4,828 nt of DNA from a virus (IMGVR_UViG_2681813264_000007); one strand, 5' to 3'. Counted from the first letter of the stretch, positions 1,601 through 4,757 are shown. Notes: generated by a model from the sequence alone, not told the origin. Numbers and translations are program-made.

Positions 1601-1981
1601 ATGACCGAGCGCATAGAATTTGTTTTACCTTACCCGCCGACGGTGAACACTTACTGGCGTCGTCGTGGCAGCACATATTTTGTATCAAAAGCCGGTGAGC
1701 GTTATCGCCGTGATGTGGCGCTTATTGTTCGCCAGCAGCGGCTGAAATTAAGCCTGTCCGGAAGGTTGGCAATAAAAATTATTGCAGAACCACCGGATAA
1801 GCGCCGCCGTGACCTGGACAATATTCTGAAAGCGCCGCTGGATGCGCTGACGCATGCGGGGTTGCTAATGGACGATGAGCAGTTTGATGAAATCAATATC
1901 GTTCGTGGTCAGCCAGTATCTGGTGGACGTCTGGGGGTGAAGATTTACCCCATAATGCATGAAGAGCAGGTCAAAAAATGA
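1601..1981 (+). CDS. rusA: Crossover junction endodeoxyribonuclease RusA (Holliday junction resolvase)
   Basis: 126 aa. The N-terminal LPYPPTVNTYWRRRG and the acidic catalytic segment PDKRRRDLDNILKAPLDALT match the RusA family signature (E. coli RusA is about 120 aa). The start ATG directly follows the upstream stop (TAAATG) and the stop overlaps the next start (ATGA). Confidence 0.9.
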   Translation: MTERIEFVLPYPPTVNTYWRRRGSTYFVSKAGERYRRDVALIVRQQRLKLSLSGRLAIKIIAEPPDKRRRDLDNILKAPLDALTHAGLLMDDEQFDEINIVRGQPVSGGRLGVKIYPIMHEEQVKK

Positions 1982-2797
1982 AACTGGAAGATTTACCGAA
2001 ATACTACTCCCCAAAATCCCCCGGCCTGACTGATGCATCGGCCTCAACGTCGAAAGATGCGCTGAGTATCACTGATGTGATGGCCGCGCAGGGCATGACA
2101 CAGAATCGGGCTGAGATGGGGGTTTCTGCGTTCCTTGGGAAAATGGGCATTAGTATGAATGACAGAGAGCGGGCAACAGAATTGCTGACAGAATATGCAC
2201 TCAGTCGGTGTGATCGCGTGGCGGCGTTAAGAAAACTCCCGGCAGAAATAAAACCGGCAGTGATGCGTATTATGGCTTCGTATGCGTTTGAAGATTATGC
2301 CCGTAGCGCGGCGAGCAAAAAACAGTGCCCCTGCTGTCACGGAAAAAAATTTATTGAAAGCGAGGTTTTTACAAACAAGATCCAGTATCCGGATGGTAAG
2401 CCGCCGGTATGGGCAAAGTGTACGAAAGGTGTGTATCCGTCTTACTGGGAAGAATGGAAAAAAGTCAGGGAGGTGGTAAAAGTTGCCTGTCCGGAGTGTG
2501 GCGGAAAGGGTGAGGTTTCCACCGCCTGTAAGGATTGCCGTGGGCGTGGTGTCGCCATTCATCGTGAAGAGTCGGTAAAACGTGGTATGCCTGTTATCAG
2601 AGACTGCCAGCGTTGTGGTGGTCGTGGCTATGAAAGACTACCATCAACGGAGGCATTTAATGCTATATGCGAGGTGACAAACCAGATAACACGCGCGTCA
2701 TGGGAAAAAACAGTTAAGAAATTTTATGATGCGCTGGTGACCCGGTTTGATATTGAAGAAGCATGGGCTGAGCGGCAGTTAAAAAAGGTAACTAGGT
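1978..2797 (+). CDS. Late-gene antitermination protein Q (QuuQ/phage-21-82-like family), 3' end truncated by the N-run
   Basis: At least 273 aa, with four CxxC pairs in DnaJ-like CxxCxGxG spacing (CPCCHGKK, CPECGGKG, CKDCRGRG, CQRCGGRG). It sits immediately downstream of rusA and upstream of a tR'-like terminator and the late-region cargo, which is the canonical Q position. The ORF enters the N-run, so the true stop is unknown; the track's end at 2904 is an artefact of translating N as X. Confidence 0.7.
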
Positions 2798-2839
2798 NNN
2801 NNNNNNNNNNNNNNNNNNNNNNNNNNNNNNNNNNNNNNN
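2798..2839. other. Run of 42 ambiguous bases (assembly gap or masked sequence)
   Basis: Directly visible as n characters. The true length and content are unknown. By lambdoid gene order the Q stop codon, the late promoter PR' and the qut site are expected here. Confidence 1.
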
Positions 2840-2876
2840 ATGGGCGTTTTATGCCTGACGTTAGAAGAGTTTCTAC

Positions 2877-2902
2877 AACCCGCCGCCGAGCGGGTTTTTT
2901 AT
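2877..2902 (+). terminator. Rho-independent terminator, tR'-like (late-operon terminator subject to Q antitermination)
   Basis: GC-rich stem CCCGC (2879-2883) pairing with GCGGG (2890-2894), 6-nt loop, then TTTTTT (2895-2900). Positioned just downstream of Q, as tR' is in lambdoid phages. Confidence 0.65.
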
Positions 2903-3020
2903 GACTGAAATCGCGTCAGTACAGTAAACGCGCTGGTGGCGGTGAATACCTGTCTTTCAGCTTGCTGGCTTTTTCGACAAGAGTTATTGGTGTGTCACGT
3001 TAACCGGAAAAGGAAAAGAC

Positions 3021-3218
3021 ATGCTAAAACAGCAGGATATGACAGAAACCGCCAGAGTGGTGTTTAATGAATTAAGCGTTACCGAACCGGCGACAGTCGG
3101 GGAGATAGCGCAGAATACTTACCTTTCACGCGAACGCTGCCAGTTAATACTGACTCAGCTTGTTATGGCGGGTCTGGCAGATTATCAGTTCGGTTGTTAC
3201 AGACGCCTTCCGCAGTGA
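3021..3218 (+). CDS. Small winged-helix-like DNA-binding protein (65 aa), hypothetical regulator
   Basis: Good SD, AGGA (3011-3014), 6 nt before ATG 3021. The segment TVGEIAQNTYLSRERCQLILTQLVMAGLA has the hydrophobic/Gly pattern of small wHTH regulators (AsnC-N-terminal, PapI/FaeA-like). Family assignment is by pattern only. The stop TGA lies inside a terminator hairpin. Confidence 0.55.
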   Translation: MLKQQDMTETARVVFNELSVTEPATVGEIAQNTYLSRERCQLILTQLVMAGLADYQFGCYRRLPQ

Positions 3219-3230
3219 AGGCTTTTTTAT
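3205..3230 (+). terminator. Rho-independent terminator overlapping the stop codon of the 65-aa ORF
   Basis: Stem GCCTTC (3205-3210) pairing with GAAGGC (3217-3222), loop CGCAGT, then TTTTTT (3223-3228). Confidence 0.6.
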
Positions 3231-3368: not shown

Positions 3369-4427
3369 ATGCTTAATACTGTAAAAATATCCAGTTGTGA
3401 GTTAATCAACGCCGACTGCCTGGAATTTATCCGGTCGTTACCCGAAAATTCTGTTGACCTGATAGTCACGGACCCGCCGTACTTTAAAGTGAAGCCTGAG
3501 GGCTGGGATAACCAGTGGAAGGGCGACGATGATTACCTGAAGTGGCTGGACCAGTGTCTGGCGCAGTTCTGGCGGGTACTGAAGCCTGCCGGAAGTCTTT
3601 ACCTGTTCTGTGGTCATCGCCTGGCATCTGATATCGAAATCATGATGCGTGAACGCTTCAGTGTGCTGAACCATATTATCTGGGCGAAGCCGTCCGGACG
3701 CTGGAACGGATGCAACAAGGAAAGCCTGCGGGCGTATTTCCCCGCCACAGAGCGCATTCTGTTCGCGGAACATTATCAGGGGCCGTATCGTCCGAAAGAT
3801 GCCGGGTATGCGGCGAAGGGCAGTGCACTGAAACAGCATGTGATGGCCCCGCTGATTTCTTACTTTCGTGATGCGCGAGCTGCCCTGGGGATAACGGCAA
3901 AACAGATTGCAGATGCCACAGGAAAGAAAAACATGGTGTCGCACTGGTTCAGTGCCGGTCAGTGGCAGTTGCCGAATGAAAGCGATTATCTGAAATTACA
4001 GGCGCTGTTTGCCCGGGTGGCAGAAGAGAAGCATCGGCGTGGTGAACTGGAAAAGCTCCACCACCAGCTGGTGGATACGTATACCTCACTGAACCGGCAG
4101 TATGCGGAGCTGCTGAGTGAATATAAACATCTGCGGCGGTATTTTGGCGTGACGGTGCAGGTGCCGTATACCGATGTGTGGACGCATAAACCGGTGCAGT
4201 TCTATCCCGGGAAACATCCGTGCGAAAAACCGGCAGAAATGCTGCAGCAGATAATCAGCGCTAGCAGTCGTCCGGGTGACCTGATTGCAGATTTTTTCAT
4301 GGGGTTGGGTTCGACAGTGAAAGCGGCACTGGCGCTCGGGCGTCGTGCAATTGGCGTTGAGCTGGAGACTGAACGTTTTGAGCAGACGGTTCGGGAAGTA
4401 CAGGATTTAGTCAGCCAGAACGGATGA
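3369..4427 (+). CDS. DNA methyltransferase, beta-class N6-adenine/N4-cytosine amino-MTase (N6_N4_Mtase fold), apparently orphan
   Basis: 352 aa. The catalytic DPPY motif lies near the N-terminus (VDLIVTDPPYF, nt 3471-3482) and the AdoMet-binding FxGxG motif near the C-terminus (DLIADFFMGLGSTV). Motif IV before motif I defines the beta permutation. A roughly 130-aa variable region between them is the presumed target-recognition domain. No restriction endonuclease gene is adjacent. Confidence 0.9.
   Translation: MLNTVKISSCELINADCLEFIRSLPENSVDLIVTDPPYFKVKPEGWDNQWKGDDDYLKWLDQCLAQFWRVLKPAGSLYLFCGHRLASDIEIMMRERFSVLNHIIWAKPSGRWNGCNKESLRAYFPATERILFAEHYQGPYRPKDAGYAAKGSALKQHVMAPLISYFRDARAALGITAKQIADATGKKNMVSHWFSAGQWQLPNESDYLKLQALFARVAEEKHRRGELEKLHHQLVDTYTSLNRQYAELLSEYKHLRRYFGVTVQVPYTDVWTHKPVQFYPGKHPCEKPAEMLQQIISASSRPGDLIADFFMGLGSTVKAALALGRRAIGVELETERFEQTVREVQDLVSQNG
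4061..4074. repeat. 14-bp perfect palindrome CCACCAGCTGGTGG containing Chi on both strands, inside the methyltransferase CDS
   Basis: Direct reading: CCACCAGC (4061-4068, Chi on - strand) overlaps GCTGGTGG (4067-4074, Chi on + strand). It encodes the H-Q-L-V-D stretch of the methyltransferase. Confidence 0.9.
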
Positions 4428-4429
4428 TA

Positions 4430-4458
4430 TTGAAGAATTAATTACGCGTCGTTATTAT
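4430..4458 (+). promoter_or_regulatory. Candidate sigma70 promoter for the tRNA cluster
   Basis: TTGAAG (4430-4435), 17-bp spacer, TATTAT (4453-4458), then a GC-rich discriminator GCGGCTCC. The predicted start lies a few nt before the first tRNA at 4468. Motif-based only. Confidence 0.45.
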
Positions 4459-4467
4459 GCGGCTCCC

Positions 4468-4543
4468 GGCCCTTTAGCTCAGTGGTGAGAGCGAGCGACT
4501 CATAATCGCCAGGTCGCTGGTTCAAATCCAGCAAGGGCCACCA
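4468..4543 (+). tRNA. ileZ: tRNA with CAT anticodon, most likely tRNA-Ile2 (lysidine, AUA-reading; ileX/ileZ-like) rather than tRNA-Met
   Basis: Manual cloverleaf: acceptor GGCCCTT pairs with AAGGGCC; D-arm GCTC/GAGC; anticodon loop CTCATAA (CAT at 4501-4503); T-arm GCTGG-TTCAAAT-CCAGC; discriminator A; encoded CCA. The anticodon arm GCGACTCATAATCGC resembles E. coli ileX. The symbol is by analogy with the ileZ-argN-argO trio of Stx phages and is tentative. Confidence 0.8.
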
Positions 4544-4550
4544 TCACATA

Positions 4551-4627
4551 CCGCCATTAGCTCATCAGGAAAGAGCGCCAGCCTTCGAAGCTGGCTGCGC
4601 GGGGTTCAAGTCCCCGATGGCGGTCCA
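4551..4627 (+). tRNA. argN: tRNA-Arg, anticodon TCG (reads CGA/CGG)
   Basis: Manual cloverleaf: acceptor CCGCCAT pairs with ATGGCGG (C1:G72); D-arm GCTC/GAGC; anticodon stem CCAGC/GCTGG with loop CTTCGAA (TCG at 4585-4587); T-arm CGGGG-TTCAAGT-CCCCG; discriminator T; encoded CCA. The symbol is by positional analogy only. Confidence 0.75.
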
Positions 4628-4640
4628 TTATCTGCATCAT

Positions 4641-4717
4641 GCGTTGTTAGCTCAGCCGGACAGAGCAATTGCCTTCTAAGCAATCGGTCACTGGTTCGAA
4701 TCCAGTACAACGCGCCA
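4641..4717 (+). tRNA. argO: tRNA-Arg, anticodon TCT (reads AGA/AGG; argU-like)
   Basis: Manual cloverleaf: acceptor GCGTTGT pairs with ACAACGC; D-arm GCTC/GAGC; anticodon stem ATTGC/GCAAT with loop CTTCTAA (TCT at 4675-4677); T-arm ACTGG-TTCGAAT-CCAGT; discriminator G; encoded CCA. Resembles E. coli argU. The symbol is by positional analogy only. Confidence 0.8.
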
Positions 4718-4731
4718 CACTTATTTTCCCT

Positions 4732-4757
4732 GGCTCGCTTTTGCGGGCCTTTTTTTT
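4732..4757 (+). terminator. Rho-independent terminator after the tRNA cluster
   Basis: Stem GGCTCGC (4732-4738) pairs with GCGGGCC (4743-4749) with one G-U pair, loop TTTT, followed by eight T (4750-4757). Confidence 0.7.

Follow-up and report, generated by a model that had tools for sequence, protein, structure and literature searches.

The 77-nt element near the end of a 4,828-nt viral sequence (IMGVR_UViG_2681813264_000007; this whole stretch of DNA is hereafter called the window) is, with near certainty judging from its sequence and its neighbours, argN, the middle gene of the ileZ-argN-argO tRNA operon found in Stx-converting and other lambdoid prophages of E. coli. We consider it likely that argN supplies a codon-supplementing tRNA-Arg, which would be charged by the host ArgRS and would read CGA and CGG, two codons enriched in phage genes. 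The gene is already known: Stx-phage records have listed argN among their annotations for decades, and genome pipelines call it routinely. An earlier interpretation of the same DNA (the sequence-only reading) missed this long-standing annotation, and the feature is therefore not novel.

Gene call, fold and sequence of argN

ARAGORN called a tRNA-Arg of 77 nt with anticodon tcg at exactly 4551-4627 on the plus strand, and its UCG anticodon and fold were the same as those described in the sequence-only reading. The coordinates, the anticodon TCG, C1:G72 and U73 given there were all correct when compared with ARAGORN, Rfam and a direct reading of the gene. The Rfam model RF00005 matched 4551-4624 with 58 bits (E = 4.8e-11), well above its curated gathering score of 29; the match covered model positions 1-71 full-length and no non-standard pair was flagged. 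When the 77-mer was folded alone, the cloverleaf was the minimum free energy structure (-35 kcal/mol, z = -2.85 versus shuffles).

The acceptor stem reads CCGCCAU/AUGGCGG, so that its first pair is C1:G72; the discriminator is U73, followed by a gene-encoded CCA. The D-loop, AUCAGGAAA, places an A at position 20, and the anticodon loop CUUCGAA is of the canonical 7 nt, with U33, U34, C35, G36 and A37. argN therefore has what is expected of an elongator tRNA, namely a 7/4/5/5-bp cloverleaf that is kept across homologues, a 7-nt loop, U33 and a purine at position 37.

Prophage setting and spread

The gene had been described as phage-borne, and its surroundings bear this out. By Pfam, the window encodes a DUF968 protein, RusA, a Q-type antiterminator, a 65-aa ORF and an N6/N4 DNA methyltransferase upstream of the tRNA genes; prophages that match the window are annotated with the same gene order, and over its whole length the window is matched by lambdoid prophages. 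The window is the late regulatory region of such a prophage. Its Q gene, the 3' part of which is broken by a 42-base run of masked N (2798-2839), corresponds to a gene that E. coli prophages matching the window list as "antitermination protein". The window also has two hairpins that resemble terminators and carry T runs, one at 2877-2896 just after Q and the other at 3205-3222 downstream of the 65-aa ORF; either may be the late-promoter terminator overridden by Q.

The argN of the window is 94.8% identical over 77/77 nt to the annotated argN of phage 933W (NC_000924), and the same identity over 77/77 nt was obtained with the argN of Stx2a_F451. About 230 phage records lie in the band of 90-95% identity to the window copy, and some 265-297 phage records contain argN. 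Matches to the 429 bases around the tRNA cluster were obtained in 297 phage records, mostly of Stx2-converting phages, and several of the matching records, including the feature table of AP012536, carry the labels ileZ, argN and argO. Among 5426 complete E. coli genomes, 1208 (22%) contain argN, at up to 5 copies per genome and under the RefSeq label tRNA-Arg; recurrence in so many genomes and phages goes well past what chance would give. The window allele is a minority form, as only 117 of 1211 E. coli records contain a copy with 99% identity or more, whereas the majority of the records show 90-95%.

The best E. coli match to the window is TUM10008 (96.5%), the best of the retrieved loci is about 96% identical to it, and phage PhiR49_2 shows 97.2% identity over the tRNA region. 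The order of a methylase gene followed by ileZ-argN-argO is the same in Stx2a_1447, P13-6 and TUM10008. In Stx phages the tRNA cluster is followed by stx, and in TUM10008 and PhiR49_2 by iraM, an esterase gene and lysis genes instead. Since these closest matches have no stx after the cluster, the prophage represented by the window is probably not a toxin-converting one.

When we searched for a host tRNA ancestor by blastn, no host Arg, Gly or Pro tRNA was the nearest relative of argN; the only relatives were those in prophages and an element upstream of yahM, described below. The sequence-only reading had suggested a horizontal origin, which is right in the sense that argN belongs to a phage tRNA lineage. 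A literature search on argN, ileZ, argO, Stx-phage tRNAs and Arg-UCG found nothing relevant in the library consulted; a paper on the pR' region does not mention tRNAs (PMC6266700), and the methyltransferase reported elsewhere in the phage is a different one, of the MT-A70 family (PMC10810198).

Organization of the tRNA operon

The features of the operon and of the two annotated genes upstream are listed in Table 1.

Table 1. Features of the window around argN (positions counted from the first base of the window).
Feature	Position	Strand	Basis
Q-type late antiterminator gene	1978..2904	+	Pfam PF03589 Antiterm, E = 1.6e-53
N6/N4 DNA methyltransferase gene, directly upstream of the tRNA operon	3369..4427	+	Pfam PF01555, E = 7.9e-42
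Sigma-70-like promoter candidate (TTGAAG, 17 nt, TATTAT)	4430..4458	+	Consensus scan
ileZ, tRNA(CAU)	4468..4543	+	ARAGORN; Rfam, 72.5 bits; annotated ileZ/tRNA-Ile
argN, tRNA-Arg(UCG)	4551..4627	+	ARAGORN; Rfam; fold; annotated argN in AP012536 and NC_000924
argO, tRNA-Arg(UCU), G1:C72, G73	4641..4717	+	ARAGORN; Rfam, 70.1 bits; annotated argO
Intrinsic-terminator-like hairpin GGCTCGCTTTTGCGGGCC with T run, closing the tRNA operon	4732..4757	+	Top-ranked terminator-like site of the window

ARAGORN and some GenBank records take ileZ for a Met tRNA; in RefSeq and in the records using the name ileZ it is a tRNA-Ile. The latter label on a CAU anticodon implies lysidine modification, and we presume that the anticodon of ileZ is modified in this way and reads AUA. 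The spacer between ileZ and argN is 7-9 nt.

The promoter candidate ends 9 nt before ileZ, and other loci, representing at least three upstream sequences unrelated to one another, have a TTGnnn-17-TATTAT element at this same spacing. Downstream of argO, the hairpin and its T run are also kept across loci, with variants in both the loop and the stem. Conservation of a promoter-like site and a terminator in loci that have different upstream genes suggests that the tRNA genes form an autonomous transcription unit within the late region. We infer that the operon can be expressed from the prophage and, on induction, additionally by read-through from the Q-dependent late promoter.

Codon demand and proposed role of argN

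We compared the codon usage of 565 distinct ORFs (130,210 codons) from viral fragments carrying an intact argN with that of 42 genes from a housekeeping region of K-12 (50 kb, 14.7k codons), predicted by the same ORF caller. Per 1000 codons, the prophage ORFs and the K-12 sample contained 6.3 and 2.7 CGA, 10.8 and 3.6 CGG, 7.9 and 1.5 AGA, 5.9 and 0.8 AGG, and 11.9 and 2.5 ATA, respectively. CGA is thus enriched 2.3-fold and CGG 3-fold in prophage genes near argN, although these ratios are approximate because the K-12 sample is small and comes from a housekeeping region. The annotated genes of the window and of two annotated phages pointed in the same direction as the large sample. Codons of all three phage tRNAs are enriched, those of argN by the lowest fold and with the highest absolute number (17.1 per 1000), and in stx2AB the most enriched codon is ATA (36.9 per 1000). 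In the five ORFs of the window itself, CGG was found at 15.2 versus 3.5 per 1000 and CGA at 2.5 versus 2.6. In the comparison of CGA and CGG usage with the host, which the sequence-only reading had proposed, both codons are thus enriched in prophage ORFs near argN, but CGA is not enriched in the window's own five. Because of the enrichment near argN, codon supplementation is the best reading of the gene.

If argN supplements codon reading, the operon, which follows Q and the DNA methylase gene and precedes either stx or cargo and lysis genes, would be expressed from a sigma-70-like promoter of its own, to which late, Q-modified read-through would be added on induction. The precursor would be cut into three tRNAs, each already having its CCA, and the host ArgRS would arginylate argN through A20, C35 and G36 despite U73. 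U34 of argN would read CGA by a standard U:A pair, a codon which in the host is read only by the inosine of tRNA-Arg(ICG), and it would also read CGG by wobble, for which the host has the minor tRNA-Arg(CCG). Together with ileZ for AUA and argO for AGA/AGG, the phage would bring readers for codons that it uses far more than the host does.

Variation and decay of the argN slot

A scan in which the two ends of the scaffold were fixed and the middle was left free returned 120 viral and 24 genomic loci, with 150 instances and 54 distinct sequences. The intact argN form is the majority (83/150), and 75 of the 150 instances lie in the order Met(cat)-Arg(tcg)-Arg(tct). In these 75 complete clusters the mean number of pairwise differences was 0.36 for ileZ, which is nearly invariant, 3.9 for argN and 1.7 for argO; 26 of the 77 positions of argN were fixed by the search pattern, and yet it is the most polymorphic of the three.

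The cloverleaf is nevertheless well kept, with standard pairs in 98.5% of the pair cells over 34 argN alleles. Both sides of the pairs 7:66, 27:43 and 30:40 are changed between the Arg form and a related form, and the pair 26:44, which runs through G:C, G:U and A:U, is also counted among the compensatory changes. Polymorphism is common at positions 17, 20a, 44 and 57; the other common changes convert G:C pairs to G:U. Changes in the anticodon loop (A37G, G36U, U33G) were seen in single loci only and none is common. Damaging changes (C11:A24, G54/G55, G58) occur in a minority of alleles.

The slot has also been wrecked outright. A 66-nt form from which the anticodon arm is deleted was found in 8 viral loci (L013, L015 and others), and forms of 81-82 nt, which RefSeq labels "tRNA-OTHER" and both ARAGORN and Rfam reject, are present in Stx2e-type prophages, for example in that of E. 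coli P13-6 (L006 4001-4081). ileZ and argO are intact beside the decayed slots. The argN slot has thus decayed independently, several times. The higher polymorphism, the damaged alleles and the wrecked slots indicate that argN, a functional-looking tRNA, is under weaker selection than ileZ and argO and has been lost repeatedly.

These observations can be read in another way, in which argN is a near-neutral passenger on its way out, possibly transcribed but contributing little, with the host tRNA-Arg(ICG) and tRNA-Arg(CCG) already reading CGA and CGG, and persisting by linkage to ileZ and argO. Besides the highest polymorphism of the three genes, the damaging substitutions in some alleles and the repeated degradation or deletion, its Rfam score is below those of its neighbours (58 vs 70-72 bits). 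Intact argN also shows no link with codon usage: CGA plus CGG amounted to 17.1 per 1000 codons in fragments with intact argN, 19.4 in those with a "Lys-like" variant of the slot (see below) and 16.3 in those with a decayed slot. As usage does not differ among the slot states, there is no signal of co-adaptation. On the other hand, every common polymorphism either affects a loop or converts G:C to G:U, alterations of the anticodon loop are confined to single loci, and the 26:44 series is what would be expected of a maintained pair. The intact form is still the majority and is carried by more than a fifth of the complete E. coli genomes, some with five copies, and the CGR codons are numerically the largest group of host-rare codons in the phage genes. 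We therefore regard the passenger explanation as rather unlikely and retain codon supplementation, under selection weaker than that on the neighbouring tRNAs.

One locus from IMG/VR (L021) carries the G36U allele of argN, whose anticodon is UCU, and its cluster accordingly has two Arg(UCU) genes. This allele is a natural anticodon switch within the arginine family.

Non-decoding relatives of the argN scaffold

The argN scaffold also occupies slot 2 (X) of Met(CAU)-X-Thr(UGU)-Gly(UCC) clusters in phages and prophages of several enterobacterial genera, the hosts being Salmonella arizonae and diarizonae, Citrobacter, Cedecea, Pseudescherichia, Dryocola, Rosenbergiella and E. coli. The X elements are 73-74 nt long and have loops of 5-6 nt (loci L127-L139 and L157-L212; examples are L128 1474-1547 and the region of L157 5554-5598). 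Their loops showed 22 variants in 64 instances, and one identical scaffold was found with seven different loops. The diversity per site was 0.30 in the loop, 0.00-0.05 at the free positions of the scaffold and 0.02-0.05 in the neighbouring tRNAs. As the flanks of these loci are only 70-90% identical, the loop behaves as a neutral sequence and the body is under strong purifying selection. There is no need to invoke hypermutation or diversifying selection for the loops, since their variation is compatible with neutral drift in loci whose flanks have diverged by 10-30%. With the body conserved and the loop free, the X elements are apparently non-decoding tRNA-like RNAs under selection, kept for something other than decoding. 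A contig titled Chryseobacterium sp. 18061 (L135) carries a Met(CAU)-X-Thr-Gly cluster that hardly differs from the one in Pseudescherichia vulneris; an enterobacterial-type cluster in a contig with this Bacteroidota title is likely to be a contamination or misassignment.

Another form of the slot has a 7-base loop with C33 and is called "tRNA-Lys(UUU)" by RefSeq and ARAGORN (L003 5001-5077, in a prophage of E. coli MIN10). It is 83% identical to argN, keeps A20, has an A:C mismatch in the T stem and scores 44 bits with Rfam; a degenerate copy lies at L005 4001-4077. In 354 E. coli records the best match to argN falls in the 80-90% band, to which this form belongs. Rather than a lysine tRNA, this form seems to be a further state of the slot that does not decode.

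A further relative lies outside the tRNA clusters, in the Escherichia core genome. In a K-12 derivative of E. coli, an 81-nt element with the argN scaffold is located between yahL and yahM (L004 2501-2581), and a match of about 75% identity, corresponding to this element, is present in some 3400 E. coli records. The element folds into a cloverleaf with a 7-bp "anticodon" stem; ARAGORN calls it tRNA-Ser(GGA), Rfam rejects it as a tRNA, and no RNA annotation was found for it in the RefSeq record. A strong promoter-like site, TTGACA-16-CATAAT, stands about 90 nt upstream (L004 2386-2413), and the annotated ATG of yahM lies inside the 3' acceptor strand of the element. It is identical at 81/81 positions in E. 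albertii, E. whittamii and E. ruysiae, the flanks of which diverge.

These relatives raise the question of whether argN itself serves as a scaffold besides or instead of decoding. It could be a module for the structure or processing of the polycistronic tRNA transcript, or it could mimic a tRNA or act as a decoy. In that case the loop with UCG would represent just one state of a variable loop, and the conserved acceptor, D and T arms would be what matters. Such a role would be in line with the X relatives, whose 5-6-nt loops cannot decode and whose bodies are nevertheless conserved like the functional neighbours, with the very short spacers between the tRNAs (1 nt upstream of X in L003, and 7-9 nt between ileZ and argN), and with the invariance of the copy upstream of yahM in four Escherichia species. 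However, the loop in the argN lineage is the canonical CUUCGAA with U33 and A37 and is not hypervariable, and neither the 81-nt forms nor the K-12 copy reaches the threshold of the tRNA model. A scaffold role is also compatible with decoding, so that the two are not exclusive. We consider this role of argN unlikely, and equally doubtful is the broader proposal that places argN, as the decoding member, in a larger family of slot-2 scaffolds (C1:G72, CCA and an A20-type D-loop) selected for a non-decoding function. If it were true, the acceptor end of argN would be a signature of scaffold function and not an accident of descent, and possible functions would include punctuation for RNase P/RNase E processing of tight tRNA operons, a tRNA decoy and a cis-regulatory leader. 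argN shares the scaffold but stands outside the non-decoding group by its canonical, conserved 7-nt loop, and it is the decoding relative of that group.

Acceptor end and aminoacylation identity

For comparison with the host, we retrieved the seven Arg tRNA genes of K-12 from four loci: argQ/V/Y/Z (ACG), argX (CCG), argU (UCU) and argW (CCU). To our knowledge, K-12 has no further Arg isoacceptor. Like argN, they belong to type I, measure 75-77 nt and have CCA encoded in the gene. Every one carries A20, and C35 is combined with G36 or U36; the 9-nt D-loop of argN is common to six of the seven, that of argW being 8 nt. None has U34-C35-G36, and the earlier statement that UCG lies outside the K-12 set holds for the seven genes. 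All seven have G1:C72 and A or G at 73, and therefore the acceptor end of argN is atypical: it departs from the host Arg tRNAs at both 1:72 and 73, as had been pointed out, and from argO as well. The sole C1:G72 gene in the four loci is tRNA-Pro. At the nucleotide level there is no detectable similarity between argN and the K-12 Arg tRNAs, and in genomes without argN its best match is not a host Arg tRNA. C1:G72, U73 and CCA are present in every argN allele retrieved, though the scan pattern demanded them; the odd acceptor end is real and conserved and is not an error of the window copy.

A20 is the main determinant for E. coli ArgRS, to which C35 and U/G36 contribute; the text of the same review includes A/G73 in the Arg identity set, and its Table 1 also lists U73 for bacterial Arg (PMC9976931). 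argN has A20, C35 and G36, the three bases that the sequence-only reading had noted and that are invariant in all intact UCG alleles, and has U73 in place of A73 or G73. A20 is invariant in the 34 argN alleles and the adjacent 20a is A, C or U, a pattern that would be expected if arginylation is selected.

The mature RNA could in principle carry an eighth acceptor pair, A(-1):U73, comparable to the G(-1):C73 of tRNA-His, with the cut of RNase P shifted by one nucleotide. An A that could pair with U73 does precede C1 in 138 of the 150 scaffold instances, in several upstream contexts, but G or T stands at -1 in the other 12 and argN has no other resemblance to tRNA-His. Moreover, many relatives have A73 with A still at -1, showing that the pair is not maintained, and we think such an extra pair very improbable.

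An altered aminoacylation identity had also been suggested in the sequence-only reading; in that case argN would be mischarged or dual-charged and would recode CGA/CGG. Bacterial tRNA-Gly identity is made up of U73, G1:C72, C35 and C36 (PMC9976931). argN has the U73 and C35 of this set but C1:G72 and G36 in place of the rest, and it is not a tRNA-Gly. C2:G71 and G3:C70, which also belong to the glycine identity set of E. coli, are shared by argN as well, and its C1:G72 is otherwise seen only in tRNA-Pro among the K-12 genes compared; the proline identity elements G35 and A73 are, however, absent from argN. With A20, which is confined to Arg tRNAs and dominates recognition by ArgRS, strictly conserved beside a drifting base, with U73 listed for bacterial Arg and with about 17 codons per 1000 of the phage's own genes that would be mistranslated at a cost, the suggestion finds no support and is hardly credible.

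Comparison with known systems

Supplying a reader for phage-enriched codons is the standard explanation for phage tRNAs, and argN itself changes little in this respect. It has some relevance to the yield of toxin and late proteins in STEC, and it is a natural case of an Arg tRNA breaking the host rule at both 1:72 and 73. More is gained from the comparisons: no gene of the operon is less constrained than argN, and argN has non-decoding relatives with a conserved body and a free loop, a combination pointing to a function, under selection, of tRNA-shaped RNAs without decoding ability.

The argN of 933W and other Stx phages is like that of the window in its anticodon, its C1:G72/U73/CCA end and its slot between ileZ and argO downstream of the methylase gene. 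Relative to the argN of Stx2a_1447, the window allele has four substitutions, all of them in the D- and T-loops (positions 17, 20a, 57 and 60). The Asn/Thr tRNA genes of SfI, Sf6 and P22-like phages come after the late antiterminator gene, as the cluster of the window does, and in SfI the cognate codons of the phage tRNAs are over-represented relative to the host (PMC3636060). These clusters differ from that of the window in their anticodons, and the window cluster is bracketed by a promoter-like element and a terminator of its own. The tRNA cluster of T4 is another codon-supplementing phage cluster, and it includes stable tRNA-like RNAs of unknown function, species 1 and 2 (rnaD/rnaC). As non-decoding cloverleaf-like RNAs among genuine phage tRNA genes, these two resemble the relatives of argN and not argN itself, which, with its canonical anticodon loop, is best regarded as a true tRNA.
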